Source: Spirochaetota bacterium
GTDB lineage: Bacteria > Spirochaetota > Spirochaetia > Treponematales > UBA12059
DNA: 64,000 nt
NCBI GenBank assembly: GCA_003247225.1
Contig: QKAK01000057.1
Location: 4,774-68,773, forward strand
Reading direction: 5' to 3'
Below the pieces are notes generated by a model. It was not told where the DNA came from, made no database searches, and worked only from the letters and a program-made list of their open reading frames with translations. Each line of letters starts with the position of its first letter. The stretch's first letter is position 1. Positions 6,584-48,722 of this stretch are shown piece after piece. Both the position numbers and the translations under genes were made by a program.

Positions 6584-6863
6584 CGAGGCAAGCGGCGCCC
6601 TAGGGCGCTTCTCATAGGTTCGGGATACAGCAGGAGCGCGCGGAGACGCGCGGCGCGCCCGGTAGGGCGCGGGATCGGATAGGCCGCCTCGTCGGCCCCT
6701 TCGGTACTCCGCTCCGTATGATGGGAGCCTTCCGTACTAAGGGCGCTAGTCGCGCTCTCCCGGCGGAAGGCGCTAACCCCGGCGACCTGACCCCTCGAAC
6801 GAGGGGAGGACCGGGGCCCGAGGCGCCATGGGGCGTCACGGGACACCACGAAAGGAGTCGATC

Positions 6864-7295
6864 ATGGCTAAGAAAGTGGTCACCGCGATCATCAAGTTGC
6901 AGTGCCCAGCAGGCAAGGCTACGCCCGCGCCGCCCGTAGGACCCGCTCTCGGTCCCCACGGCGTCAGCGCGCCGCAGTTCTGCCAGCAGTTCAACGACAG
7001 GACCAAGTCGATGGAGGCGGGGCTCACCATTCCCTGCGTCATCACGGTCTACAAGGACAAGTCCTTCACCTTCATCACGAAGACGCCGCCCGCGTCCGTC
7101 CTCATCAAGAAGGCCATCGGCCTCGATAAGGGCTCGGCGGTTCCTCACAAGCAGAAGGTGGGCAAGATCCCCCACGCCAAGGTGACGGAGATAGCCAAGC
7201 TCAAGCTCAAGGATCTCTCGGCCAACGACGTAGAGGCCGCCGAGCGCATCATAGCCGGTACCGCCCGCGCCATGGGCGTCGAAGTGGAGTGGTAA
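6864..7295 (+). CDS. rplK: 50S ribosomal protein L11
   Basis: Internal start [30 protein letters not shown] of ORF 6828..7295; GAAAGGAG upstream. Confidence 0.95.
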
Positions 7296-7298
7296 GCG

Positions 7299-7982
7299 AT
7301 GAAGCACGGTAAGAAATACAGGGAAGTCGTCAAGAAGGTCGAGGCCGGCAAGGCGTACGAGCTCGCCGAGGCCTGCGCGCTGCTCAAGGAGCTCAAGGTC
7401 GCCAAGTTCGACGAGACGGTCGAGGCCCACATCAAGCTCAACCTGAAGAAGAGCCAGACGGTCCGCGACACCGTCGTCCTCCCCCATCAGTTCAAGGCCG
7501 AGAAGAAGGTCCTCGTCTTCTGCAAGCCCGACAAGGAGAAGGAGGCCCTCGAGGCCGGGGCCGCCTACGTCGGAAGCGACGAACTGATCGAGAAGATCAA
7601 GGGCGGCTGGATGGACTTCGACATCGCCGTCGCGACGCCCGACATGATGAAGGACGTCGGTAAGCTCGGTATGGTCCTCGGCCGCCGCGGCCTCATGCCG
7701 AACCCGAAGACCGGCACCGTCACCTTCGACGTCAAGGCCGCCATCGGCGAGCTCAAGAAGGGCCGGACCGAGTTCAGGACCGACAAGACCAATATCATCC
7801 ATATCTCGGTGGGCAAGCTGTCGATGGAGCCGGCTCAGGTCGCCTCCAACCTCGAGACGCTGCTCGGCGAGATCCAGCGCAAGCGCCCGTCCGACGTGAA
7901 GGGCGAATTCGTCCAGTCCGTGTACGTGGCCGGCACGATGACGCCGAGCGTCAAGGTCGCCCTGGCCAAGGTAGAGAGGTAA
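7299..7982 (+). CDS. rplA: 50S ribosomal protein L1
   Basis: MKHGKKYREVVKKVEAGKAYELAEA...; follows rplK by 3 nt. Confidence 0.95.
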   Translation: MKHGKKYREVVKKVEAGKAYELAEACALLKELKVAKFDETVEAHIKLNLKKSQTVRDTVVLPHQFKAEKKVLVFCKPDKEKEALEAGAAYVGSDELIEKIKGGWMDFDIAVATPDMMKDVGKLGMVLGRRGLMPNPKTGTVTFDVKAAIGELKKGRTEFRTDKTNIIHISVGKLSMEPAQVASNLETLLGEIQRKRPSDVKGEFVQSVYVAGTMTPSVKVALAKVER

Positions 7983-18458: not shown

Positions 18459-19649
18459 ATGGCGAAAGAGAAATTCGAGCGCAACAAGCCGCACATGAAC
18501 GTCGGCACGATCGGCCACATCGACCACGGCAAGACGACGCTGTCCGCCGCTATTACCATGTACTGCGGCAAGAAGTTCGGCGACAAGGTCATGAAGTACG
18601 ACGAGATCGACAACGCCCCCGAAGAGAAGGCGCGCGGTATCACCATCAACACCAGGCACCTCGAGTACCAGTCGAACAAGCGCCACTACGCGCACATCGA
18701 CTGCCCGGGCCACGCCGACTATATCAAGAACATGATCACCGGCGCCGCCCAGATGGACGGCGCGATCCTGGTCGTGTCCGCCCCCGACTCCGTCATGCCC
18801 CAGACCCGCGAGCACGTGCTGCTGGCCCGCCAGGTAGGCGTCCCGGCCATCATCGTGTTCCTCAACAAGATCGACCTCCTCGACGACCCCGAGCTCGTCG
18901 AGCTCGTCGAGCAGGAAGTCCGCGACCTCCTGAACTTCCAGAAGTTCCCCGGCGACGAGACCCCGATCATCAAGGGCTCCGCGTTCAAGGCGATGTCCGA
19001 GCCGGACAACGCCGAGGCGACCAAGTGCCTCGAGGAGCTCCTGGAGGCGATGGATACCTACTTCAAGGACCCCGAGCGCCTCACCGACAAGCCCTTCCTG
19101 ATGCCGATCGAGGACGTGTTCTCGATCTCCGGCCGCGGAACGGTCGTTACCGGCGCCATCAACCGCGGCGTCGTCCACGTCAACGACGAGGTCGAGATCG
19201 TCGGTATCAAGCCGACCAAGAAGACCGTCGTCACCGGCGTCGAGATGTTCAACAAGCTGCTCGACGAGGGCCAGGCCGGCGATAACATCGGCGCCCTGCT
19301 CCGCGGTATCGACAAGAAGGAAGTGGAGCGCGGACAGGTCCTCGCCAAGCCGGGCTCCATCACCCCGCACACCAAGTTCAAGGGCCAGATCTACTGCCTG
19401 TCCCAGTCCGAGGGCGGTCGCCACAGCCCGTTCTTCGCCGGCTACAGGCCCCAGTTCTACTTCCGCACGACCGACATCACCGGTACCGTCACCCTCCCCG
19501 AGGGCAAGGAAATGGTTATGCCCGGCGACAACACCGAGATCTTCGGCGAGCTGATCTACCCGATCGCCATGGAGAAGGGCCTCAAGTTCGCTATCCGCGA
19601 AGGCGGCCGCACCGTGGCTTCCGGCCAGGTCACCGACATCCTCGCGTAA
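18459..19649 (+). CDS. tuf: Elongation factor Tu
   Basis: [28 protein letters not shown]...[26 protein letters not shown]; 396 aa. Confidence 0.98.
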
Positions 19650-19672
19650 GCGGATCGTTTCTTAGCTAATCG

Positions 19673-19702
19673 GGCCGCCCCTCGTCGGGGCGGCCTTTTT
19701 TT
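19673..19702 (+). terminator. Intrinsic terminator of tuf
   Basis: GGCCGCCCC-TCGTC-GGGGCGGCC followed by T7. Confidence 0.8.
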
Positions 19703-19924
19703 GGTCCGCGGCGTACCGCGGGCCTCCTTCGCGGGACTGCAAGGAAATTTATTCGGCGTCGCCGCTGAAAGCGGCGGGCATTACCGCGAAGGCGGCCGCA
19801 CCGTGGCTATCGCCCTTCGGGCGAAGCTCGCGAGGAAGTATTATCGTGCGCGCTGAAAGCGCGCGGCGCGGACCGGCCAGGTCACCGACATCCTCGCGTA
19901 AGCGGATCGTTTCTTAGCTAATCT

Positions 19925-19955
19925 GGCCGCCCCTCGTCGGGGCGGCCTTTTTTTT
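19925..19955 (+). terminator. Second copy of the tuf terminator
   Basis: Same GGCCGCCCC-TCGTC-GGGGCGGCC stem followed by T8. Confidence 0.7.
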
Positions 19956-20056
19956 AAGGTCCGCGGTATGCCGCGGACCGCCTTCGCGGGCTTTCGAAGC
20001 GCGAATACGATTCATTTTTCTCTAATTGAATACAGTTGCGGGCCTAACGAAACGGA

Positions 20057-20085
20057 TTTACACTACTATTCGCTTAGGATACGAT
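20057..20085 (+). promoter_or_regulatory. Candidate promoter of the ugp-like operon, bracketed by a 9-bp inverted repeat
   Basis: TTTACA (20057-20062), 17-nt spacer, TACGAT (20080-20085). GAAACGGAT (20049-20057) and ATCCGTTTC (20084-20092) are perfect inverted repeats spanning both hexamers. Confidence 0.35.
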
Positions 20086-20125
20086 CCGTTTCCCGGGTCG
20101 ATCATTCGATGCAATGGAGGCATAC

Positions 20126-21433
20126 ATGAAACGGTTTCTGTTAGCGTCCCTCGCTCTCGTCATGATCGCTGGGTCCGCGTTCGCGGCCCCTATCACGATC
20201 GACTTCTGGCACGCGATGACCGGCAAGAACGGCGATACGGTGCAGGCTATCTGCGATAAGTTCAACGCCAGCCAGTCGGACTATAAGGTCGTCCCGGTCT
20301 ACAAGGGATCGTATTCCGATACGATGAACGCCGGCATCGCCGCCTTCCGCGCCAAGTCGGCCCCCGCCATCATCCAGGTCTACGAGGTCGGTACCGCCAC
20401 GATGATGGCCGCCAAGGGCGCCGTCAAGCCGGTGTACCAGCTGATGAAGGAGACCAAGCAGAAGTTCGACCCGAAGATCTATATCCCGACGATCACGAGC
20501 TACTACTCGACGTCCAAGGGCGAGATGCTCTCCCTGCCGTTCAACTCGTCGACCTCGGTTATGTACTATAATAAGGACGCCTTCCGCAAGGCGGGCCTCG
20601 ATCCCGAGAAGCCCCCGGTCACCTGGCCCGAGTTCTTCGAGGTAGCCAAGAAGCTCAAGGCTTCCGGCATGGAGGGCGGCTTCTCCACCAACTGGATCTC
20701 CTGGATCCAGCTCGAGAATTTCTCCGCCTGGCATAACCAGCCCTTCGGCACCAGGTCCAACGGCTTCGACGGCCTCGATACCGAGCTCGTGTTCAATACT
20801 CCGCTGGTCCAGCGCCATCTCGAGACCATCTACCAGCTCAGCCTCGACAAGACCTTCATCTACGGCGGCCGCGAGAACAAGGCCAACCCGCTATTCTCGT
20901 CCGGCCAGGTAGGCATGCACTTCGAGTCCATCGGAGGATACGCCAACTTCAAGAATACCTGCAAGTTCGACTTCGGCGTCGCCCGGCTCCCGTACTATCC
21001 CGACGTCGCCGGCGCCCCGCAGAATTCGATCATCGGCGGCGCGAGCCTCTGGGTCTTCAACGGCAAGTCGAAGGACGAGTACAAGGGCGTAGCGTCGTTC
21101 TTCTCGTTCCTGTCCACCCCCGAGATCCAGGCGTTCTGGCACCAGAACACCGGCTACCTGCCGATAACCACCGCCGCGTACGAGCTGACCAAGTCGCAGG
21201 GCTTCTACGAGAAGAACCCCGGTCCCGAGGTGGCGATCAAGCAGCTGCTGAATAAGGCCCCGACCAAGAACTCGATGGGCATACGCTTCGGCAACTTCAA
21301 CATCATCCGCGAGATCGAGGACCAGACCTGGGAGGATATCCTCGCCGGGAAGATCTCCGTAAAGGCCGGACTCGACAGGATGGTCCGCGAGGGCAACGCC
21401 AAGCTCCGCGATTTCGAGCGCCTCAATAAGTAA
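20126..21433 (+). CDS. ugpB: sn-glycerol-3-phosphate/glycerophosphodiester ABC transporter substrate-binding protein (UgpB-like)
   Basis: Start moved to MKRFLLASLALVMIAGSAFA (GGAGG upstream). Long collinear similarity to E. coli UgpB as I recall it (IAAFRAKSAPAIIQVYEVGTATMMA, NSSTSVMYYNKDAFRKAGLDPE, WIQLENFSAW, PQNSIIGGASLWV, TGYLPIT). Confidence 0.85.
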   Translation: MKRFLLASLALVMIAGSAFAAPITIDFWHAMTGKNGDTVQAICDKFNASQSDYKVVPVYKGSYSDTMNAGIAAFRAKSAPAIIQVYEVGTATMMAAKGAVKPVYQLMKETKQKFDPKIYIPTITSYYSTSKGEMLSLPFNSSTSVMYYNKDAFRKAGLDPEKPPVTWPEFFEVAKKLKASGMEGGFSTNWISWIQLENFSAWHNQPFGTRSNGFDGLDTELVFNTPLVQRHLETIYQLSLDKTFIYGGRENKANPLFSSGQVGMHFESIGGYANFKNTCKFDFGVARLPYYPDVAGAPQNSIIGGASLWVFNGKSKDEYKGVASFFSFLSTPEIQAFWHQNTGYLPITTAAYELTKSQGFYEKNPGPEVAIKQLLNKAPTKNSMGIRFGNFNIIREIEDQTWEDILAGKISVKAGLDRMVREGNAKLRDFERLNK

Positions 21434-21447
21434 TTCGCTTCCGTAAC

Positions 21448-21472
21448 GAGGGGCGGCCGACGGCCGCCCCTC
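21448..21472 (+). other. Intercistronic GC stem-loop after the binding-protein gene
   Basis: GAGGGGCGGCCG-A-CGGCCGCCCCTC palindrome with no T tract. This matches the mRNA-stabilising hairpins often found after ABC binding-protein genes. Confidence 0.5.
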
Positions 21473-21494
21473 GACCCTTACCTCAGGATACTCC

Positions 21495-22385
21495 ATGGTT
21501 CAACAATACGAGTTCAAGGCGAAATGGCTTCCCTATCTCCTGGTCCTGCCTCAGATGGTGATAGTCTTCGTGTTCTTCTTCTGGCCGTCGCTGCAGGGGC
21601 TCTGGCAATCGTTCTTCCTGCAGGACCCGTTCGGCGGGCAGGTCATCTTCGTGGGCCTCGAGAACTATGTCCGGCTCTTCACCGATCCGGCGTACTCGTA
21701 CGGCGAGTCGTTCGCCGTATCGGTGGCCTTCGCGGTGTGCGTGGCGGGCCTGTCGATGATACTGGCGCTGTTCCTGGCTACGCAGACCAACAAGAAGATA
21801 CGCTTCGCGTCGTTCTATAAGACGATGATGATCTGGCCGTACGCGGTGGCGACCATGGTCGCGGGCGTGCTGTGGCTGTTCATGTTCAACCCGAACGTCG
21901 GCGTCGTCGCCTGGTTCCTCAAGAACCGCTTCGGCATCGAGTGGCAGCACCTGCTCAATTCCGGGCAGGCCTTCCTGCTCGTCACGCTGGCCGCGAGCTG
22001 GAAGCAGATATCGTATAACTTCGTATTCTTCCTGGCGGGCCTGCAGAGCGTACCGGTCGACTTCATCGAGGCGGCGGCGATAGACGGCGCCGGCCCCATG
22101 CGCCGCTTCTGGAAGATCATCTTCCCGCTCCTGTCGCCTACGACGTTCTACCTGCTCGTGATGAACCTCGTCTACGGCTTCTTCGAGACCTTCCCCATCA
22201 TCCACCAGGTGACGGCGGGCGGCCCGGGCAAGTCGACGAGCATACTGGTGTATAAGGTATGGCGCGACGGCGTCATCAACCTGGATCTCGGCGGATCCTC
22301 GGCCCAGTCGGTCATACTGATGATCATGGTGATCGGTCTTACCGTCGTACAGTTCCGCTTCATCGAGCGGCGCGTGCATTATTGA
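21495..22385 (+). CDS. ugpA: ABC transporter permease (UgpA-like)
   Basis: WLPYLLVLPQ..., WKQISYNFVFFLAGLQSVP...IEAAAIDGAGPMRRFWKI; collinear with E. coli UgpA from memory. Confidence 0.85.
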   Translation: MVQQYEFKAKWLPYLLVLPQMVIVFVFFFWPSLQGLWQSFFLQDPFGGQVIFVGLENYVRLFTDPAYSYGESFAVSVAFAVCVAGLSMILALFLATQTNKKIRFASFYKTMMIWPYAVATMVAGVLWLFMFNPNVGVVAWFLKNRFGIEWQHLLNSGQAFLLVTLAASWKQISYNFVFFLAGLQSVPVDFIEAAAIDGAGPMRRFWKIIFPLLSPTTFYLLVMNLVYGFFETFPIIHQVTAGGPGKSTSILVYKVWRDGVINLDLGGSSAQSVILMIMVIGLTVVQFRFIERRVHY

Positions 22386-22395
22386 GGAGCGATCG

Positions 22396-23241
22396 ATGAC
22401 CGAGCATAACCGCCTGCGGAGGTTTACCCCGCACCTGTACCTTTGGATCGCCATTGTCATACTGCTGTTCCCGATCATCCTCGTTTTTATCGCCTCGAGC
22501 CATACGAGCGCCGAGATCCTGGCCGCGCCCATGCCGATGAGGCCGGGTTCCCACCTTGTCGAGAACTACACGCGGGCGATACTCGAAGGCAACAAGAACC
22601 TGGGCGCCTCGGCGCTGACGATGATGAAGAATTCGCTCATAATGGCCCTCGGCATAGCGATCGGCAAGATCGTCGTGTCCCTGCTCGCGGCCTACGCCAT
22701 TGTGTTCTTCAAGTTCCCCCTCCGCAACTTCTGTTTCTGGGCTATATTCATCACGCTGATGCTGCCGGTCGAGGTTCGCATCATGCCGACGTATAAAGTC
22801 ATATCCGACCTGGGATTGCTTAACAGCTACGCGGGGCTTATCCTTCCGATGATCGTGTCGGCGACCGCGGTGTTCCTGTTCAGGCAGTTCTTCATGCAGA
22901 TCCCGCGCGAGATAGCCGAGGCCTCCCAGATAGACGGGGCCTCGCCGATGCAGTTCTTCTGGAGCATCCTGCTGCCGATGACCAGGACGCCGATCGCCGC
23001 GATGTTCGTCATCCAGTTCATCTACGGCTGGAACCAGTACCTGTGGCCGCTGCTGATCACCACGAAACAGGAGTATTACACCATACTGATCGGTATTAAC
23101 CGGATGCTCGCCGGGGCGGACGTAGTCATAGAGTGGCAGATAGTCATGGCCACGACCCTGCTCGCGATGATACCCCCGGCCCTTATCGTCGTCGTCATGC
23201 AGAAGCAGTTCATAGCCGGCATGACCGACACGGAGAAATGA
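22396..23241 (+). CDS. ugpE: ABC transporter permease (UgpE-like)
   Basis: FKFPLRNFCFWAIFITLMLPVEVRI, QIDGASPMQFFWSILLP, FIYGWNQYLWPLLIT; collinear with E. coli UgpE from memory. Confidence 0.85.
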   Translation: MTEHNRLRRFTPHLYLWIAIVILLFPIILVFIASSHTSAEILAAPMPMRPGSHLVENYTRAILEGNKNLGASALTMMKNSLIMALGIAIGKIVVSLLAAYAIVFFKFPLRNFCFWAIFITLMLPVEVRIMPTYKVISDLGLLNSYAGLILPMIVSATAVFLFRQFFMQIPREIAEASQIDGASPMQFFWSILLPMTRTPIAAMFVIQFIYGWNQYLWPLLITTKQEYYTILIGINRMLAGADVVIEWQIVMATTLLAMIPPALIVVVMQKQFIAGMTDTEK

Positions 23242-23348: not shown

Positions 23349-24356
23349 TTGAAACGTTTTCTGTTAGTTCTCGCGGCGATCGCCGCCTTGTACGCGTCAT
23401 GCTCGAAGGAGGCCGCCGTCGTTACGGAGGCGCCCGCCGGAAGCCCCGTCGCCGCCGTCGGTAAGACTCCCGAGGGGCGGCCCGCGATAATCATGCTCCA
23501 GGGGCTATCGCTCTGGACCCGCGACGGCGATGCCGCCGTGTGGGCCAAGTCGGCGACCCTCGCCGACCTCGTAACGATCGTCGGAGAGCCTGTAGAGCTC
23601 GAGTACAATAAGGTTAAGCGCGAGTATTGCGAGATCGCCGTCGCCGACGGCTCGAGGTATTACGTCCGGACCCCGTACCTCGCCGAGGACGTCATGCTGG
23701 CCGTCGTCGACAGCGAGAAGTGCGTCGTATACAACGAGCCTCGCGTTATCGGGGCGACGACCGACGTGGTGCCTTTCCTGACGGTCGTCGCGGTCGTGAA
23801 CACGGTCCTCGAGGACGGCTACGTGCGGGTGAGCTACGCGAACGCGGACTCGGTAATGGTGACGGATAAGTGGGTGCGTCGAGAATGCCTCGTTACCGGC
23901 GGCGATAACGTAGGAGCGGCGGTGAGCCTGGCGGTCGTCGGGGCGATCGATCCGAAGAACGTCGAACTCAAGCTGAACATACTCGATGGTGCCGCCAAGG
24001 CCTATTCCGGATCGAGGTTCGCCGCGAATATAAATAATGCGATACTGGAACTCCGAGGCGAACCCGCCGTCACAGCGGAACCGGCGGAACCGGAGATCCC
24101 GTCTATCTCTGAAACGTTCAAGGCGGTCTTTGACGGCTTCGTAATCGATTATTCAACGGTCAACGTCAGGGCGTTGCCCGATATAGAGTCGGATAGTGTC
24201 GCGAAGCTCGTCCGCGGCGATGTCGTCAAGGCGTCGGAGCGGACCGTCGCGAGGAGCGAGATCAAGGGCTACCTGGATCATTGGTATCACATCGTCAGTC
24301 CCGTCGACGGGTGGGTGTTCGGCTCGCTCGTCGATTGGAACGACGCGGCGAACTAA
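23349..24356 (+). CDS. Lipoprotein with C-terminal bacterial SH3 (SH3b)-like domain
   Basis: TTG start with GAGGAG upstream. Lipobox LYAS-C in MKRFLLVLAAIAALYASCSKE. C-terminal VNVRALPDIESDSVAKLVRGDVV...WYHIVSPVDGWVFGSLV is SH3b-like. Confidence 0.6.
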   Translation: MKRFLLVLAAIAALYASCSKEAAVVTEAPAGSPVAAVGKTPEGRPAIIMLQGLSLWTRDGDAAVWAKSATLADLVTIVGEPVELEYNKVKREYCEIAVADGSRYYVRTPYLAEDVMLAVVDSEKCVVYNEPRVIGATTDVVPFLTVVAVVNTVLEDGYVRVSYANADSVMVTDKWVRRECLVTGGDNVGAAVSLAVVGAIDPKNVELKLNILDGAAKAYSGSRFAANINNAILELRGEPAVTAEPAEPEIPSISETFKAVFDGFVIDYSTVNVRALPDIESDSVAKLVRGDVVKASERTVARSEIKGYLDHWYHIVSPVDGWVFGSLVDWNDAAN

Positions 24357-24562
24357 ATTTAGCGGAGAGGTTCTCTCCTAGCCGTTTGGCGAGCTGATCT
24401 TGGCCTTCCGGAGCGACTATTCGCCGATCCGGGAGGCCGAATCGTTTTTCTGCATGGTCGGGCAGCGCCGTCGCTCGAGCCGACGCCTCGCGGCATGGCC
24501 CCTCGGGAGCCGTCATGGCGCTCGTCGGGGCGCCGCGAGGGCTTCGTATGGGCAACTTTCCC

Positions 24563-24591
24563 TTGACATTTATTCCGTATAAGGGCATAAT
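24563..24591 (+). promoter_or_regulatory. Sigma70 promoter of the S10 operon
   Basis: TTGACA (24563-24568), 17-nt spacer, CATAAT (24586-24591). A ~170-nt GC-rich structured leader precedes rpsJ. Confidence 0.6.
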
Positions 24592-24762
24592 CCCCGGGCT
24601 ATTCGTCTGGGCGCCGTGGCGTCCGCGAAGGACGGGTAGTCGCCGTAAGCGGGTTACGCTACGGCGGCGCGAGGTTCCACGACCTCGAGCGTCCGGGTAT
24701 ATGGGCACGCCCGCCAGGGTACGGCCTGATGTATGCCGGCGCAAGCGATCTTTGGAGGACAC

Positions 24763-38742: not shown

Positions 38743-39654
38743 ATGGGCGACGATAGGCGGGACAAGTCGGGGACCGAGTCGATCGGGATGCTGTTCGGCG
38801 TGGGCGCGTACGGCCTCTGGGGCCTGTTCCCGCTGTACTGGAAGCGGCTGTCGTCGGTGCCGTCGCTGCAGATCCTGATGCATCGGATAGCCTGGGCCTT
38901 CGCGCTGACCTTCGCGCTGGCCCTGCTGCTCGGCAAGCGGCGGCTGATCGCGGAGCTGCTGCGCGACCGCAGGCGACTCGGCGCGACGATAGCGGCCGGC
39001 TTCCTCGTCAGCCTCAACTGGGGCATCTACATCTGGGCGGTCAACGCCGGGCATATCGTCGAGACCAGCATAGGGTACTTCCTGAACCCGCTCGTCTCGG
39101 TCGCCCTCGGCTCGCTCGTGCTCAAGGAGAGGATAGACCGCGGCATCAAGGCTGCCTGCGCGATCGCGGCGGTCGGGATAGCGGTGCTCACGGTATCGTA
39201 CGGCAAGCTGCCCTGGATAGCGCTGTCGCTCGCGGCCACCTTCTCGCTCTACGGCCTCATAAAGAAGCTGACTAACCTCGACGGGCTGACCGGCCTGGCG
39301 ATGGAGACCGCCCCGGTCATGCCGCTCGCGATCGGGTACCTGGTATTCGAGGAGCTGGCGGGGCGCGGGGCCTTCGGGCGGGCAGGGGGCGTCGAGACGG
39401 CCATGCTGGTGCTGGCCGGGGCGGTGACCGCCCTGCCGCTGTTCTTCTTCGCCGAGGGGGTAAAGCGGGTGCCGCTGTCGAGGATGGGCTTCCTGCAGTA
39501 CATCTCGCCGACGCTCCAGCTGGCGCTCGGGCTGTTCGTGTTCGGGGAGACGCTTACGGCGCCGAAGGCGGCCGCCTTCGCGTTCATCGTGGCGGCCCTG
39601 GTCGTGTTCGCGGCGACGAGGCCGAGGCGCGCCCGCGACGGCGGGGCCGACTAG
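38743..39654 (+). CDS. rarD: EamA/RarD-family (DMT superfamily) transporter
   Basis: GMLFGVGAYGLWGLFPLYWKRL...HRIAWAF is the RarD signature; ~10 TM segments. Confidence 0.8.
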   Translation: MGDDRRDKSGTESIGMLFGVGAYGLWGLFPLYWKRLSSVPSLQILMHRIAWAFALTFALALLLGKRRLIAELLRDRRRLGATIAAGFLVSLNWGIYIWAVNAGHIVETSIGYFLNPLVSVALGSLVLKERIDRGIKAACAIAAVGIAVLTVSYGKLPWIALSLAATFSLYGLIKKLTNLDGLTGLAMETAPVMPLAIGYLVFEELAGRGAFGRAGGVETAMLVLAGAVTALPLFFFAEGVKRVPLSRMGFLQYISPTLQLALGLFVFGETLTAPKAAAFAFIVAALVVFAATRPRRARDGGAD

Positions 39655-44001: not shown

Positions 44002-45252
44002 CTAGGCCCTTACGCCGACGATCTTGCCGCGCTTGACGACGGCGCCGACGAGGTTCATGCCCACGTGGTACGCCAGGTGGCGGTACGACGGGGCGTCCAG
44101 CACGAGCAGGTCGGCCAGCTTGCCCGCCTCTATAGAGCCGCGGTCGCCGGCGAGGCCGAGCGCGGCGGCCGCGTTCAGGGTCAGCGCGGTCAGCGTCTCC
44201 TCGATCGTCATGCCCATGTACAGCACGGCGAGGGCCGCGGCCAGGGGGATGGACTGGCTGTAGCACGAGCCGGGGTTGAGGTCGGACGCTACGGCGACCG
44301 CCAGACCGCGGTCTACCATCGCCCTGGCGGGCGCGTACGGCTCGCGCAGGCTGAACGCGGTCAGCGGCAGGCAGGTCGCGACGACGCCGGCCTCCGCCAT
44401 CGCCCCGAGATCGTCGTCGGACGCCTTGAGCAGGTGGTCGGCGCTGACCGCGCCTACGGCCGCGGCCAGGCCGGCGCCGCCTAGCCGGACGATCTCGTCG
44501 GCGTGCAGCTTGACGCCGAAGCCCATCGACCTGGCCGCCTCGAGGAAGCGCCTCGAGTCGTCGAGCTCGAAGACCCCGCGCTCGCAGAAGACGTCGCAGA
44601 AACGCGCCAGGCCGCCTTCCTTGACCCGCGGCAGCACCTCGCGTATCGCGAAGTCGATGTATCCCGACGGGTTTCCCTTGTATTCGACGGGGATGGAATG
44701 CGGGCCCATATAGGTCGATACGATATCGACCGGCTGCCTCGCATCGAGCAGCCGCATGACCTCGAGCTGGCGGAGCTCGGTCTCCAGGTCGAGGCCGTAG
44801 CCCGACTTGCCCTCGACGGTGGTGACGCCGAGCCCGAGCATCCGCTCGAGCCGGGCGGCGGCGCTCGCCTCGAGCTCCTCGGCCGAGGCGTTCCGCGTGT
44901 CGCGCACCGTGTTGGCTATGCCGCCCCCGCGGGCGTGGATCTCCATATACGGCAGGCCCTCGGCCCGCCAGAAGAACTCGTCGTCTCGGTAGCCGCCGAA
45001 CACGAAATGGGTGTGCGAGTCGACGAAGCCCGGTACGACGGCGCCTCCGCGCGCGTCGACGCGCTCTGGCGGCGGCCCGTCGAGCCTCGGCAGCTCGGAG
45101 GCAGGGCCGGCCCAGGCTATCGTCTCCACGTCGACGGCGACGGCGGCGTCGCGGACGATCCGCAACTCTCGCATGCGAGCGCCGGCGCGAGCCGACGAGC
45201 CGACGGGCGTCGCCAGCTCGCCGATGTTCTCGATCAGCAGCGTCGCCCTCAT
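44002..45252 (-). CDS. hutI: Imidazolonepropionase
   Basis: 416 aa amidohydrolase; motifs PGFVDSHTHFVFGG, KLHADE, VSADHL and ASDLNPGS. Confidence 0.9.
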   Translation of the reverse strand: MRATLLIENIGELATPVGSSARAGARMRELRIVRDAAVAVDVETIAWAGPASELPRLDGPPPERVDARGGAVVPGFVDSHTHFVFGGYRDDEFFWRAEGLPYMEIHARGGGIANTVRDTRNASAEELEASAAARLERMLGLGVTTVEGKSGYGLDLETELRQLEVMRLLDARQPVDIVSTYMGPHSIPVEYKGNPSGYIDFAIREVLPRVKEGGLARFCDVFCERGVFELDDSRRFLEAARSMGFGVKLHADEIVRLGGAGLAAAVGAVSADHLLKASDDDLGAMAEAGVVATCLPLTAFSLREPYAPARAMVDRGLAVAVASDLNPGSCYSQSIPLAAALAVLYMGMTIEETLTALTLNAAAALGLAGDRGSIEAGKLADLLVLDAPSYRHLAYHVGMNLVGAVVKRGKIVGVRA

Positions 45253-48200
45253 CGCCCGCCCGCCTCGCGGCCGCGGTACAGCGGGTCGACGCCTATCGTA
45301 CCGACGAGCGAAGCGGCGTATCCCGGCCGCGACGCCCGCTCGAGGCTCTCCCGGACGGTCGCGAGCTCGCGGCGGGCCTTCGCGAGGTCTCGCTCGTCGC
45401 GGCCGCGCGGTGAGCCGAGGAATTCCTCGAGGTAGGCGACGCCCTCGCGGAGCCTCGCGCGCTCGGCCTCGGCGTAGGCTTCGAGGCGCGCGGCGTACCA
45501 GTCCGAGGACAGCACGTAGTCGCGGTCGAACAGGCGCCGCAGCTCGGGGTCGCCCAGGCCCTTGCCGTTCCAGGAGCCCTCGGCCATCACGCGCAGGATG
45601 GCCTGGAGCGGCGGGATGGCCGCCTCGATCGAGCCGTCCTGGACGTAGTCGCGCGCGACGCGCTCCTGGGCCTCGGCGATGTTGAGGACGCCGTCGGCGA
45701 AGTACTCGAGGCTCTGCAGCTCGGGCCGGAGCACCTCCTCGGGGAACACCGACGACGGGGCGTCGAAGATGCGGCCGAGGAAGTGCGACGCGAACAGCGG
45801 CGTGATGCGCCAGCCGAGCCGGCCCGCCGGTATGGTCCGGCCGCCGAGCTCGAAGTCCTCGACGCGCTCGAGGTAGCCGTGCTCGATCAAGAAGGCCGGG
45901 TCACGCTCCTCGGGCGTCAGCCTGGCCCACAGCTCGGGCACTAGCAGCGATATATCGTGGTCTATCCTGTACTTGTGGCCGATGTAGCCGGCGGCCGTGG
46001 AGAAACCGTCGTATCCCCCGAGTATGAAGCCGAGCAGGGCGTTGTTCAGGTCCGAGGTCGGCGTCAGCGAGTTGAACGGGCCCTTGGTCAGCGCTCCCTC
46101 GGATCCGGCGCCGGTCGTCGACGGGCTCTTCCCGGTCAGCGAGCAGATGAAGTCCATGAACAGCTCTGGCAGCTCCTGGTAATGGACCGGCCCGTAGACG
46201 GCCAGCGGCCTGATGCCGGCCTCCGGCTCTGGCGGGTTGTTGCGCCTGCCCGGCAGCACGGCGCCGACCGGGTAGTAGACCGGCGCGTCGGCCCTGACCA
46301 TGCGGAACAGCCTGGCCCCGACGTCGGCCAGGTAGCGATCGAGCGGCGCGGCGTAGTTGCGGTCCAGCTGCAGGTAGCGCGGGTTCTTGGACGGCTTGCC
46401 GTCGACGATACGGGGCTTCGACGAGACGACGAACCAGCGGAACCCGTCGTCGCCCTCGGCGCCGACTATCATCTCGCGCATCGGCTCGGTGTACTCGGAC
46501 AGCTCCACGGTGCGCTCGACCATCTCGTTGGCGTTGGCGCGCGACAGCGGCTCGAAGTTCGAGATGAAGTTGTCGGGCCGCGCCATGTCGGCCTCGGCCT
46601 GCTTGTCGTAGCCGCGATGGATCGCGTCGTCGGGGCGCTGGAAGAACCTGGCCTCGCAGTTCTTGACGAACTTGACCGATTCGCCCCGTACGTCGTCGGG
46701 CAGGCCCGACAGGGCCGGCGTCGGCGCTATGACCGACGCGGTGATGTCGTCCTCCCACTGGATCTTCGCCGCGGGCATGTAGTCCTGCCTGAGCTTGTGG
46801 ATGGACCTGGCGCCTTCGGGGGTGAAGCCGACGCGAAGGTACGAGCCCTGGACGGGGCGGCCGTCGTACTTGACCACGTTGCCGGCGGCGCCGTTGACGA
46901 CGTCGGTGGTGAAATGGGACGCCCAGTCGTCGCCCCACTCCGGGCGGTAGAAGCGCTTGACCAGGAAGACGAGCGCCTTGACGCGATCCGGTATGGCGGC
47001 CAGCCACTCGTTGTACACGTCGGTGTACAGCTCCGAGGGTGAAAGCAGCTTGATGACGCTGCCGAGGGAGCGCTTGTCCGACAGGATCGAGCGGCTGGCG
47101 GAGCCGTGGTTCTCCGCGGGGTCCTTGAAGCGGGTGCCGTACGGATACTCGATGACGGCCTTGACCATCGCCATGTCGGCGGCGAAGTCGCCGGTGACGA
47201 TCGGGCCGTCGCTCATCGCGTCGGTGATCTGCTTGGATATCTCGGACTTGCCGCCGCCGGAGACCGTGCACGGCTTATGGCACAGGAGGCCGTCGGCCTG
47301 CGTGCCGATGAGGCGCCACGAACCGGTCTTGGGGTGCTGCTGCATCTCGATCCTGTAGCCGGTCGGATGCACGTAGGTCTCGCCGGGGAGTATCCGCAGG
47401 CTCTGCTCGACGCCGTCCCTGCGCCAGACGGCCTTCTGCGTGTCGATGGACAGCACGGCGTCCTCCGGCAGGTAGATCACGCTCGGGAAGACGGCGTCGA
47501 TGGCGTAGCCCTCCGGCCGCAGCTCGATGCGGTCGCCGAGCAGGCGCACCACGTCGTCGAAGCGCTGGCCCTTCGAGCGCAGGTTGGTATCCGGCACGAA
47601 GCGGTTCCCGAGGTTGAAGCTGGGCAGCACGAGCGCGCCGCCGGCGTGCTCCTCCTCGGTCAGGCCGAGCAGGTTCGACGAGTAGGAGATCTGCGTCTTG
47701 ATCTCCTTCTTGGAGTACCCGAAGTAGTTGTCCGCGATGATGGTGACGATGACGCCGCGCTCGTCGCGGGCGCAGAGCTTGAACGGCTGGCCGCCGTTGT
47801 ACGGTTCGGACGGATCCTTCCAGGCCATGCCGTCGCGCCTCTGGCGCTCGGTGGCCTCGTCCCAGGACGGCAGGCCGAGCGCCTTCTTCGGCGTCCCGAC
47901 GAGGTGGGTGGCCAGGATGATGCAGCCCGTGTGGCCCGACCAGTGGAGCGGGTCGAGCGCGGCGTCGTTGGCCGAGACGTAGGGGTCTCCGGAGTTCCCG
48001 AAGATGCTCTCGACGAAGTCGAGGTTGGCGGCGAGCGAGGCCGGCGCGAAGAAGCGGGTCTCCATCGAGCGCTCCTCGTAGAGCCCGGGCACCTCCGGCC
48101 GCACCGTCGGCCTCATCAGCAGGGACAGGAAGCAGCGGGCGGGCTCCGGCTCCTGGGCCGTGAACGGCAGTACCAGGAGATCGTCCGGCGGGTTCAGCGC

Positions 48201-48722
48201 CGCGGCGAGCATCCTGGCGAACGCTATCTTCGGCACGGCCAGCTTGTCGAGCGGGATCGGCAGGCCCCCCTCGGCTATATGGAAGACGCCCTTCGTGGTG
48301 CGCCGGTCGTTCTTGGGGTTATGGAGGATGCCGTTGCGCACCCGGTACGAGGCCAGGGTCGGCGATCGGTACTCGTGGGCGTCAGGCGGCAGCGACAGCT
48401 CCCTGGCCATGCCGTATCGGTCGAGCGTCAGCGTGTTCGAGGGCAGTCGGGGCGCCTCGCCGTCGGGCAGGTCGGCTAGGTACGAGTCGAGGAACGCCTG
48501 GATGCGGGCGTCGGCCGGGGGGAGGTAGTCGGCGAGCAGCCGCGCCTTCTCCCGGTAGTTGAGCAGCATGTCGTTGGCGAGCTCGAGGAACGCGGTGCCT
48601 TCCTTGCCGTAGACCGGCAGGCCGAGGGCCGATAGCTTCAGGTTGATGTATGCGATGAGCCTTCCCCGTTCAGACGGCGAGCGTCGATCCAGGGTGACTC
48701 CGAAGTCGCGTTTTGCCGGCAT
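45249..48722 (-). CDS. Large (1157 aa) conserved protein with PEPCK-like kinase motifs; candidate PPi-type phosphoenolpyruvate carboxykinase
   Basis: The size matches the ~1150-aa PPi-PEPCK class. TVSGGGKSEISK resembles the PEPCK kinase-1a P-loop (GLSGTGKTT in ATP-PEPCK). NYFGYSKKEIK resembles the PEPCK-specific YGGxxKK motif. Its stop overlaps the hutI ATG (ATGA). Confidence 0.4.
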   Translation of the reverse strand: MPAKRDFGVTLDRRSPSERGRLIAYINLKLSALGLPVYGKEGTAFLELANDMLLNYREKARLLADYLPPADARIQAFLDSYLADLPDGEAPRLPSNTLTLDRYGMARELSLPPDAHEYRSPTLASYRVRNGILHNPKNDRRTTKGVFHIAEGGLPIPLDKLAVPKIAFARMLAAALNPPDDLLVLPFTAQEPEPARCFLSLLMRPTVRPEVPGLYEERSMETRFFAPASLAANLDFVESIFGNSGDPYVSANDAALDPLHWSGHTGCIILATHLVGTPKKALGLPSWDEATERQRRDGMAWKDPSEPYNGGQPFKLCARDERGVIVTIIADNYFGYSKKEIKTQISYSSNLLGLTEEEHAGGALVLPSFNLGNRFVPDTNLRSKGQRFDDVVRLLGDRIELRPEGYAIDAVFPSVIYLPEDAVLSIDTQKAVWRRDGVEQSLRILPGETYVHPTGYRIEMQQHPKTGSWRLIGTQADGLLCHKPCTVSGGGKSEISKQITDAMSDGPIVTGDFAADMAMVKAVIEYPYGTRFKDPAENHGSASRSILSDKRSLGSVIKLLSPSELYTDVYNEWLAAIPDRVKALVFLVKRFYRPEWGDDWASHFTTDVVNGAAGNVVKYDGRPVQGSYLRVGFTPEGARSIHKLRQDYMPAAKIQWEDDITASVIAPTPALSGLPDDVRGESVKFVKNCEARFFQRPDDAIHRGYDKQAEADMARPDNFISNFEPLSRANANEMVERTVELSEYTEPMREMIVGAEGDDGFRWFVVSSKPRIVDGKPSKNPRYLQLDRNYAAPLDRYLADVGARLFRMVRADAPVYYPVGAVLPGRRNNPPEPEAGIRPLAVYGPVHYQELPELFMDFICSLTGKSPSTTGAGSEGALTKGPFNSLTPTSDLNNALLGFILGGYDGFSTAAGYIGHKYRIDHDISLLVPELWARLTPEERDPAFLIEHGYLERVEDFELGGRTIPAGRLGWRITPLFASHFLGRIFDAPSSVFPEEVLRPELQSLEYFADGVLNIAEAQERVARDYVQDGSIEAAIPPLQAILRVMAEGSWNGKGLGDPELRRLFDRDYVLSSDWYAARLEAYAEAERARLREGVAYLEEFLGSPRGRDERDLAKARRELATVRESLERASRPGYAASLVGTIGVDPLYRGREAGGR

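Follow-up and report, generated by a model that had tools for sequence, protein, structure and literature searches.

Integrative elements target the 3' ends of conserved genes and carry a replacement 3' end with them, and CIMEs are integrase-less relics that are bounded by attachment sites. REP, BIME and MITE sequences are extragenic palindromes and short G+C-rich hairpin sequences. At rhs, CDI and T6SS effector loci, orphaned 3' ends are lined up in C-terminal or sequential displacement arrays, whose origin has been ascribed to homology-facilitated illegitimate recombination (Kirchberger et al. 2017, PMC5361080; Jackson et al. 2009, as cited in PMC5361080). This type of recombination has been treated in the context of transformation (de Vries and Wackernagel 2002; Prudhomme et al. 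2002; Meier and Wackernagel 2003, all as cited in PMC5361080), and in E. coli conjugation, duplications of 109-950 bp arose via single crossover of circularised molecules (PMC3240628). Here we describe a displaced gene end behind tuf in a 64-kb stretch of Spirochaetota DNA (the window). We consider that the extra tuf end is most likely a leftover of recombination, and not a trace left by a second tuf since lost or by the neighboring transporter genes.

The duplicated tuf 3' end and its X sequences

The features of the locus, all on the forward (+) strand, are as follows.

18459-19649, +, tuf (EF-Tu, 396 aa), intact (open reading frame, translation)
19595-19619 and 19620-19649, +, A1 and B1, the last 55 nt of tuf, B1 including the TAA stop
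19650-19702, +, T1, the intrinsic terminator of tuf, with a stem-loop at 19672-19696 and T7 (terminator scan)
19703-19724, +, H1, a perfect hairpin with loop CGTA
19725-19735, +, tail t1, TCCTTCGCGGG, complementary to the start of A
19725-19783, +, X1, made up of tail t1 and spacer S1 (19736-19783) (nhmmer, covariance model)
19760-19776, +, inner hairpin of X1, CGCCGC-TGAAA-GCGGCG
19724-19794, +, long X-a hairpin, in which an outer 11-bp stem (19724-19734 with 19784-19794) surrounds the inner hairpin
19784-19808, +, A2, the first 25 nt of the displaced tuf 3' remnant, equal to A1; its junction, at which TTA meets CCGCGA, is common to L093 and L111
19809-19872, +, X2, a full-length but divergent X copy inside the remnant (nhmmer, E = 2.4e-7)
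19811-19823 and 19848-19864, +, hairpins of X2, CGCCC-TTC-GGGCG and GCGCGC-TGAAA-GCGCGC
19873-19901, +, B2, the remainder of the displaced remnant, with TAA and without the first T of B
19902-19956, +, T2, the second terminator copy, with a stem-loop at 19925-19947 and T8 (terminator scan)
19957-19990, +, H2 (hairpin 19958-19979, loop TATG) and tail t2 (19980-19990)
19991-20113, +, native tuf-ugp spacer, promoter and 5' UTR, collinear with single-copy strains
20036-20041 and 20059-20064, +, conserved ugp promoter, TTGCGG and TACACT, separated by 17 nt
20114-21433, +, solute-binding protein gene, first of a ugp-like cassette, given as context outside the duplication (Pfam SBP_bac_1, SBP_bac_8)

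The tuf gene remains intact, its product is 95-98% identical to Spirochaetia EF-Tu, and T1 is 94% identical to the terminator of same-species contigs; two terminators and several hairpins now lie between tuf and the ugp promoter, as judged from the sequence and the terminator scan. This promoter was missed by the consensus scan, and the same hexamer layout was read directly in the related contigs L082 and L112.

The original prediction described a second copy of the tuf end, and this duplication is real: the last 55 nt, the terminator and the second hairpin recur ~190-250 nt downstream. Its finer details also agreed with our alignment, in which A1 and A2 match at 25/25 positions, the 64-nt insert X2 splits copy 2 at 19809-19872, and 19621-19702 matches 19873-19954 at 81/82 positions, with one substitution (G19672 vs T19924) and one extra T (7 T vs 8 T). 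In addition, T19620, the first T of the second tuf piece, is absent from copy 2. The repeat had been described as running through the terminator; homology extends beyond this, through the second hairpin and CCTTCGCGGG, and reaches 19735 and 19990, respectively (blastn, E = 2.5e-44, 92% identity over 118 columns). A third CCTTCGCGGG, reported after copy 2, is found at 19981-19990. In the single-copy strains L091 and L094, the segment corresponding to H1 and t1 occurs once, and H2 and t2 of the window are continuous with the sequence 3' of their single tuf end. A self-comparison of the window found no other part that resembles any piece of the duplicated region. Exact-protein look-ups with the tuf, ugpB and ugpA products of the window gave no match, and the one with rpsG led to a contig of 50-200 kb.

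The suspected kinship of the spacer and the insert was borne out, as their local alignment score was 27-31, compared with 12 on average (sd 2.3) for shuffled sequences, and 0/2000 shuffles reached it when the spacer was taken together with the CCTTCGCGGG tail. In each, a G+C stem of 6 bp closes a TGAAA loop (19760-19776 in the spacer, 19848-19864 in the insert), and GCTGAAAGC occurs 3 times in 64 kb, where 0.39 occurrences are expected. X2 is 69% identical to X1 (global alignment) and 73% identical to X111, the X copy of the related contig L111, while X1 is 85% identical to X111 and 71% identical to X93 of L093. Moreover, the ends of X2 coincide with those of X111, both starting with A behind a T and finishing with A in front of CCG. 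The tail and the start of A form an inverted repeat of 11-14 bp, whose right arm is tuf sequence, and the right arm of the outer stem of X-a likewise consists of the first bases of the tuf remnant. X together with the start of the remnant folds into a conserved hairpin, for which the three-locus consensus has 22 pairs, 2 of them compensatory, and the DNA fold of X-a gives z = -4.2, -5.0 and -3.9 at the three loci. The idea of a small hairpin element that inserted repeatedly stands in so far as the spacer and the insert belong to one family (X), which recurs in L093 and L111, but this family is not dispersed. X was found only behind tuf, and blastn, nhmmer with 2- and 3-sequence profiles, a hairpin regular expression and a covariance model found no further copies in the window and 43 related loci (545 kb), so that the dispersal expected of a MITE or REP was not seen there.

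Several sources of X were considered and rejected. The native tuf-ugp spacer has no similarity to X (p = 0.3-0.99), the S10 leader gave no blast match, and the single match to the ugp 5' UTR and gene start among 44 tests (p = 0.007) was taken as chance. An ISL3 element was also dismissed as a source because it is not in the window. A small ORF running from X into the remnant, called with 30 aa in L111, was discarded as X93 has stops and X1 is without a start codon; the whole module spans 110-250 nt and has no ORF of note inside.

Presence and absence among related contigs

Five contigs of the same species (L089-L092 and L094, 98-99% nucleotide identity) have one tuf end followed by the native terminator T, the hairpin H, the tail and the ugp promoter, and no X. 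In L093, which belongs to the same species, tuf is followed by a different terminator (T'), X93, an uninterrupted 55-nt remnant and the native T. The same order is found in L111, a contig of another species (tuf 93% identical in amino acids), with its own extra terminator (T^111), X111, an uninterrupted 55-nt remnant and the native T. The junction of X with the remnant, joining TTA to CCGCGA, is identical in the window, L093 and L111, while the terminator before X differs in each. In all three, the remnant begins at one and the same position, 55 nt ahead of the stop, and X and an extra terminator always precede it. Over 7 kb, exactly a 166-nt block and one SNP distinguish L111 from L112 and L113, and the identity between L093 and L090 is 99.7-99.9%. 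Neither T' with X93 nor T^111 with X111 is found in L090-L092, L094 and L112-L114. The samples in question are ERZ27257452 for L093, 3300010349 for L090, 3300038336 for L111, and ERZ27239242 and ERZ27239240 for L112/L113. The module is thus present or absent in nearly identical strains.

The extra terminators (collectively T*) are diverged orthologues of clade-typical tuf terminators, at 25-35% divergence from native T. T' is nearest to the terminator of L102 (70%), T^111 is nearest to that of L112 (75%), and the two are 60% identical to each other. The right end of the module (X) is conserved at 71-85%, and the left end (T*) at 60% is at background level. Nine SNPs are clustered at 19511-19631 among otherwise identical tuf genes, and the remnant of L093 has the alternative SNP allele, which is that of the real tuf end of L094 and L098. 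We read this cluster as a recombination tract ending at the tuf 3' end. A module-free strain of the window's own lineage was not found among the relatives, and the donor-SNP tract is thus read in those relatives. Neither 55-nt copy of L111 has donor SNPs, though the divergence of T^111 is 25%. X1 resembles X111 from the other species more than X93 from the same species, which indicates horizontal movement.

A further contig, L104, has the first 17 nt of X 3' of its tuf terminator (0/500 shuffles), and this looks like a decayed module; a tuf 3' remnant after the fragment is suggestive only (p = 0.026, uncorrected for the 8 alleles tested). The terminator of L105 contains a 12-14-nt match of CCGCGAGGGCGG(CC), which indicates that such G+C-rich matches can arise by chance, and the complementarity between tail and A in single-copy strains should be viewed with the same caution. 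Most comparison sequences are metagenome contigs, in which strain mixing in assembly graphs may blur the assignment of flanks to modules. The sole nearby transposase in the relatives belongs to an unrelated ISL3 element.

Proposed origin of the module and its rivals

We give roughly even chances to the explanation that the locus is a segregating "3'-end displacement" module, which was generated by one-sided or illegitimate recombination and was then spread and lost by homologous recombination. The window, L093 and L111 all have an intact tuf followed by an orphan copy of its own 3' end, the DNA between the new end and the orphan is non-homologous and absent from sister strains, and relatives have a donor-type SNP tract inside tuf that extends up to the 3' end. 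The junction of X with the remnant sits at the palindrome CCGCGARGGCGG, and X2 ends at GCT/T and CCG.

The module would combine a functional tuf 3' end with an intrinsic terminator and X (~60 nt), placed ahead of the displaced, non-coding last 55 nt and the original terminator. Its junction, with TTA meeting CCGCGA, may have been made by one-sided, homology-facilitated illegitimate recombination, in which the highly conserved tuf would have served as the anchor and the other end would have been joined at the G+C-rich palindrome CCGCGARGGCGG within tuf. Tuf sequence would then bound the module on both sides, as the gene upstream and as the 55-nt remnant downstream. Related genomes could thus pass the module on by ordinary homologous recombination, the remnant arm pairing with the tuf end of the recipient, and recombination between the two 55-nt repeats could remove it precisely. 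This gain and loss through tuf on both flanks would lead to the presence/absence polymorphism in near-identical strains. The window itself may have gone through two stacked rounds, with X1 as the newer and X2 as the older and more decayed product, after which the terminator of the upper copy would have been overwritten by gene conversion from the lower one, in a tract bounded on the left by B and on the right by the CCTTCGCGGG tail. Two microhomology deletions (GCT/T-run and CCG..CCG) may have wedged X2 between A2 and B2. T1 and T2 are 96-99% identical and have lineage-specific SNPs in common, and this near identity beside the 69% between X1 and X2 fits conversion of the tuf-derived parts, in line with the gene conversion or recent event that had originally been proposed.

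Nevertheless, several points weigh against this origin. Among the loci examined, we found no donor lineage in which native X is followed by non-tuf DNA, and the illegitimate step is thus one that we infer and do not see. A single origin with co-transfer predicts that T* and X share one history, and the modules counter this, as they share X and the junction but have unlike T*, for which extra conversions or several donors are needed. The layout of the window requires at least four steps. Finally, the kept 11-bp stem with its compensatory change, and the fact that X2 shares both ends of X111, would fit a discrete selected or mobile element as well.

A mobile element is the leading rival, though unlikely in our view. 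X, alone or with the tuf 3' repeat, would be a tiny non-autonomous element of the MITE, REP or CIME type, mobilised in trans by a recombinase or transposase encoded elsewhere, with a preference for T^CCG sites in or beside the tuf 3' end or just past terminators, and the 55-nt repeats would be a duplication of its attachment site. The full-length X2 in a second context (A2/B2) with the ends of X111 argues for it, and both insertion points lie between T and CCG (ATC before the CGCGAAGG region, CTT before CCGGCCAGG). X and the remnant start form a conserved inverted-repeat hairpin of ~72 nt, the phylogeny of X is at odds with that of its hosts, and near-identical strains differ in whether they have the block. 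Flanking direct repeats, as in an integrative element or CIME, are found as well (55 nt in L093 and L111; 25 nt and 118 nt in the window). However, neither the window nor ~0.5 Mb of related loci contains X at any place other than behind tuf. A target-site duplication is lacking, tuf itself supplies the right "terminal repeat", and the left side (T*) is not conserved across modules, so that the element ends are not both conserved between copies. No recombinase gene or relic was seen in or near the module, the 26 scanned ORFs of the window include no integrase or transposase, and three scans of viral contigs with X and the tuf end, as a phage or integrative-element attachment site, were empty. 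It is rather improbable, in particular, that X and the 55-nt tuf repeat constitute a minimal, gene-less, site-specific mobile element, which lands at the 3' end of the essential and near-invariant tuf with its own replacement gene end and terminator, has spread across uncultured Spirochaetia species, and uses the X hairpin as the recognition structure for a recombinase encoded elsewhere. A diversity-generating retroelement was also considered and rejected, as the repeats are 99-100% identical and no reverse transcriptase is among the scanned ORFs.

We are still more doubtful that the module is kept as a useful RNA or transcription signal, whether tandem terminators and the X hairpin insulate ugp, as a separately regulated operon, from read-through of the very strongly expressed str/tuf transcript, or the module stabilises the 3' end of the tuf mRNA or yields a 3'-derived small RNA. 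Every module does add a complete intrinsic terminator, compensatory changes separate the terminator stem of T^111 from that of native T and indicate a long functional life, and the hairpin has preserved its stem through a compensatory change from UA to CG. The region as a whole (416 nt) also folds far better than its shuffles (z = -7.4), but this is largely because of the repeated palindromes, and the fold of X2 is not significant (z = -0.3 to -1.3). Furthermore, the covariation is anecdotal (n = 3-4 sequences), and most strains and species are without the module. No Rfam family matched the locus at the gathering score: in Rfam 15, the region gave only sub-threshold terminator matches at E up to 10 (suhB/mmgR, 25.8 and 23.9 bits vs 41), and the whole window gave 2 tRNAs only.

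A plain in-situ tandem duplication by replication slippage with a random 64-nt insertion, the simplest version of the original view, is very improbable. The direct repeats lie close together and their tuf-derived parts are nearly identical, as slippage would have it, but S1 is not what originally lay downstream (it does not resemble the native spacer, p > 0.2), X1 and X2 are only 69% identical, and the upstream copies of L093 and L111 combine the same X and junction with terminators that are 25-35% diverged. Simple tandem duplication was rejected since S1 has no counterpart after copy 2 and the units of L093 and L111 have different terminators; on this comparison, slippage appears to be already contradicted by these two contigs.

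An assembly artefact in the source of the window, for example from a repeat resolved wrongly or from mixed strains, has equally little to commend it. The spot seems hard to assemble, as the related contigs L088, L096, L097, L098 and L108 break at or near the tuf end, and the comparison material is largely metagenomic. However, three assemblies made independently from different samples all contain the junction of X with the remnant, each amid other variants, and a junction needs real spanning k-mers; in addition, diagnostic changes tell the two copies of the window apart.

Least credible is the original suggestion of a footprint left by insertion of the ugp cassette at the tuf-rpsJ junction or by a lost second tuf, which the position at the tuf/ugp boundary and the canonical junction of the more distant L110, with rpsJ directly after tuf, might favor, but which the comparative data already contradict, as all relatives from ~90% tuf nucleotide identity upwards have the cassette between tuf and rpsJ, nearly all of them with a single tuf end, the duplication is polymorphic within the species, the remnant is always exactly 55 nt with X and an extra terminator in front, and no second tuf was found in the window, where the antisense 396-aa ORF at 6612-7802, tried as a candidate, is unrelated to tuf.

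Meaning and comparison with known systems

If displacement by one-sided recombination is true, the locus would be a compact and well-resolved natural example of orphaned gene ends arising by recombination anchored in an ultra-conserved housekeeping gene, and its scar would travel between species simply because conserved gene sequence lies on both flanks. This could help to interpret odd partial duplications beside core genes, and it is relevant to strain-level recombination studies in uncultured bacteria and to the question of why metagenome contigs break at tuf. The tuf displacement module is not a new biological system, and greater significance would follow only if X were a dedicated mobile or regulatory element.

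Like REP, BIME and MITE sequences, X consists of short G+C-rich hairpins just past terminators; unlike them, it is not dispersed, the data examined containing no copy other than at the tuf locus, it shows no target-site duplication, and one arm of its hairpin is tuf coding sequence. The resemblance to CIMEs lies in the intact gene, the displaced 3' end that forms a direct repeat, and the gene-less element between attachment-like repeats. However, no integrase is present in the window or in the loci examined, the left end is not conserved, and the element is far smaller than known CIMEs; our literature search found no report of tuf as a known attachment site. Homology-facilitated illegitimate recombination offers a parallel, with one homologous anchor, one illegitimate join of the microhomology type and the possibility of short duplications of the anchor region. 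The tuf locus departs from it in having a junction that recurs in three lineages, which suggests either that the junction arose once and spread or that the 12-nt palindrome is a strong hot spot.

The rhs, CDI and T6SS arrays differ from the tuf locus in that tuf is an essential housekeeping gene whose new and old ends encode the same protein, so that no function is gained; the tuf block is only 110-250 nt long, and the hairpin X always marks its junction. What the tuf locus would share with these arrays is the course of events, in which a segment comes in, anchored in the conserved upstream part of the gene, and supplies a new 3' end, the previous end is displaced further downstream and orphaned, successive rounds stack the orphans, and the resulting arrays are then exchanged via homologous recombination.

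The duplicated tuf end in the window

The duplication of the tuf end is real, and it is more structured than could be seen in the original prediction, which had described a repeated gene end and terminator with a 64-nt hairpin-rich insert splitting the second copy. The layout is as follows.

18459-19649: tuf, an ORF of 396 aa
19595-19619: A1, the initial 25 nt of the final 55 nt of tuf
19620-19649: B1, the other 30 nt, stop codon included
19650-19702: T1, terminator
19703-19735: H1 and t1, second hairpin, then the tail TCCTTCGCGGG
19736-19783: S1, spacer
19784-19808: A2, second copy of A
19809-19872: S2 (also X2), 64-nt insert
19873-19901: B2, without the first T of B
19902-19956: T2, second copy of the terminator
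19957-19990: H2 and t2, second hairpin and tail
19991-20113: native spacer, containing the ugp promoter
from 20114: solute-binding protein (SBP) gene

The split duplication was borne out by identity at 25 of 25 positions in A and 81 of 82 in B-T, and homology between the copies extends through H and the tail at lower identity (92% over 118 columns). The kinship proposed between spacer and insert also held: X1 (tail plus S1) and X2 share 69% global identity, and none of 2000 shuffles scored as high as observed. The repeat unit starts with CCGCGAAGGCGG and ends with the reverse complement CCGCCTTCGCGG, a motif that is locally enriched, as four of its nine near-matches within 64 kb fall in this region. 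The H1 loop (19712-19715) is CGTA, as in all other strains, and the H2 loop (19967-19970) is TATG; H2 fits the reverse complement of H1 (21/23) better than a direct copy, as if the hairpin loop had been inverted, with one change besides. Separately, 15 nt of the tuf A segment are found on the opposite strand in a G+C-rich palindrome at 39563-39582 (GGCCGCCTTCGCGG...). The L105 terminator has a similar match, and the two show that A-type motifs recur by chance in these genomes.

Tuf ends in related strains

A dozen same-species contigs, 98-99% identical to the window, were obtained by scanning for a DNA pattern and looking up the exact rpsL. Two of them (L091, L094) have a single tuf end followed by T, H, tail, spacer, promoter and SBP gene, exactly what stands 3' of copy 2 in the window, and L089, L090 and L092 share this layout with an ISL3-family insertion sequence in the terminator T-run; S1 and S2 are absent from all five. 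The insertion sequence (L089:1214-2540, minus orientation, 1327 bp) encodes a 402-aa transposase, has the terminal repeat GGTTCTTCCGGGTTTTCAGGGA and an 8-bp duplication TTTTTTTA, and also lies in the tuf terminator T-run of L093 and L103; the window is without it. Relative to L091 and L090, the window also lacks 13 nt (GGGACTTCAGAGC) of the tuf-ugp spacer at 20003-20004, a gap flanked by short direct repeats (GAAGCG.GGAATACG).

In L093, which is 99.7-99.9% identical to L090 and falls in its strain cluster, tuf is followed by a different terminator (T'), by X93, by an unbroken 55-nt tuf remnant and by the native T. X93 is clearly homologous to X1 (z = 7.4), and X meets the remnant at ..TTA|CCGCGA.., just as in the window. 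Among same-species contigs whose tuf genes otherwise agree throughout, as in the L093/L090 cluster, nine synonymous SNPs are clustered at 19511-19631 (last 140 nt); they define two alleles, and L097 is a hybrid of these. In L093 the intact gene ends in one allele, and the remnant has the alternative one, which forms the genuine tuf end of L094 and L098. This pattern is the signature of a recombination tract ending at the gene 3' end, with the old end displaced. Plain slippage duplication is unlikely. The tuf 3' end is a recombination hot spot.

A second lineage has the same arrangement. In L111, whose EF-Tu (P0008, HGW-Spirochaetae-7 lineage) is 93% identical in amino acids to that of the window, tuf is followed by T^111, X111, a 55-nt remnant, native T and the ugp promoter; the three contigs with identical EF-Tu (L112-L114) all have a single tuf end, and over 7 kb L111 differs from L112/L113 only by this extra block, 166 nt long, and one SNP. 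An assembly artefact is unlikely. X111 is 85% identical to X1, with an identical inner hairpin CGCCGCTGAAAGCGGCG, and X1 is just 71% identical to X93 of its own species. The extra terminators T' and T^111 are unrelated (60% identical), and their closest counterparts come from the host's own clade (L102, 70%, and L112, 75%, respectively). In all three loci, X folds with the 11 bases that open the remnant into a hairpin of about 72 nt, with an outer 11-bp stem, three more pairs and an inner G+C hairpin (DNA folding z = -3.9 to -5.0), and one outer pair switches from U-A to C-G along with the tuf allele. In L104, of a further lineage, the first 17 nt of X lie directly 3' of the tuf terminator (0/500 shuffles), which may be a decayed module.

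Breaks are common in this species' metagenome contigs within the final 60 nt of tuf, the terminator or the CCTTCGCGGG tail, or directly behind them (3' ends of L088, L096, L097 and L098; 5' ends of L108 and L109), consistent with graph branching from the module, the insertion sequence and two tuf-end alleles.

The transporter cassette and its surroundings

The window EF-Tu is 95-98% identical to uncultured Spirochaetia proteins, such as that of 'Spirochaetes bacterium GWB1_59_5', and the gene order is rpoB-rpoC-rpsL-rpsG-tuf, with no fusA, followed by the SBP gene, two permease genes, an SH3-domain ORF, and rpsJ with the S10 operon. The ugp-like cassette (20114-23241; SBP and two permeases, ATPase gene absent) interrupts the tuf-rpsJ junction across a whole Spirochaetia clade (L082-L114). 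Because it is present in all relatives whose tuf is at least about 90% identical in nucleotides, the cassette is much older than the duplication, so the earlier suggestion that the duplication may be a footprint of the ugp insertion is not supported and that origin is unlikely. A lost second tuf is also unlikely. In the more distant L110 (EF-Tu 87% identical), tuf is followed by 64 nt and then rpsJ.

Behind the second permease gene and ahead of rpsJ, the 335-aa ORF at 23349-24356 (+) has an N-terminus like that of a lipoprotein and an SH3_3 domain at the C-terminus; it is a strain-specific insertion within the str-S10 region, since same-species L103 and L106 have merely about 400-475 nt at that place. 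Upstream of rpsJ, the stretch 24560-24762 contains a sigma-70-like promoter of good quality (TTGACA and, after a 17-nt spacer, a sequence ending in ATAAT), together with a long leader that is structured and rich in G+C. The leader includes GTCCGCGAAGGACGG, and no S10-leader match was found at the Rfam gathering score. A 1157-aa ORF at 45249-48722 (-), adjoining a 5-oxoprolinase/D-glutamate-cyclase-like gene cluster, had no Pfam match at E <= 1e-5.

Origin of the module

The feature behind tuf is most likely a 3'-end displacement module that is polymorphic and exchanged horizontally: a working tuf end, terminator and X placed before the displaced remnant. The tuf gene is extremely conserved and the DNA 3' of it is variable. 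One-sided homology-facilitated illegitimate recombination requires homology to anchor one end and microhomology to join the other, and this is an ideal setting for it. We infer that such recombination, anchored in tuf, is the most likely origin of the module. A single illegitimate event would join X to tuf position -55, at the palindrome CCGCGARGGCGG; thereafter the block would have tuf sequence on either side, and ordinary homologous recombination could carry it into any related genome. Recombination between the 55-nt repeats could delete the block precisely, which would explain its presence or absence among near-identical strains, and transfer and deletion would also explain L091-type strains, whose single end would be an 'imported' allele fused to the native terminator.

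To reach the window layout, four more steps are needed. An older second module would have been present, with X2 as its remains. The upper terminator would have been gene-converted by the lower T-H-tail segment: the shared tail is the exact point where homology between the copies ends, and lineage-specific SNPs are common to T1 and T2. The other steps would be two deletions, one between GGCT and the T-run and one between two CCG triplets, the latter leaving X2 between A2 and B2.

The proposed origin has its weak points: no lineage with a 'native' X was found among the loci compared, the extra terminators and X have different histories (awkward for simple co-transfer), donor SNPs are in neither 55-nt repeat of L111, and X2 and X111 share both ends, as expected of a discrete element. 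A small trans-mobilised element targeting T^CCG in the tuf end is therefore a live alternative, at a fairly low probability. Neither the rest of the window nor 545 kb of related loci yielded a further copy of X, which matched no viral contigs and had no conserved ORF through it; the 26 window ORFs scanned included no recombinase or transposase. Selection of the extra terminator and hairpin as an insulator or for an RNA role is also live, at a still lower probability; T1 and T2 are both positive in a terminator scan, and X had no Rfam match at gathering score.

[quoted passage not shown] The tuf module resembles these loci in its orphaned 3' end and, in the window, its apparent stacking, and the same mechanism is proposed for both. 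On this reading the kind of recombination scar is known already, and the tuf variant is new.
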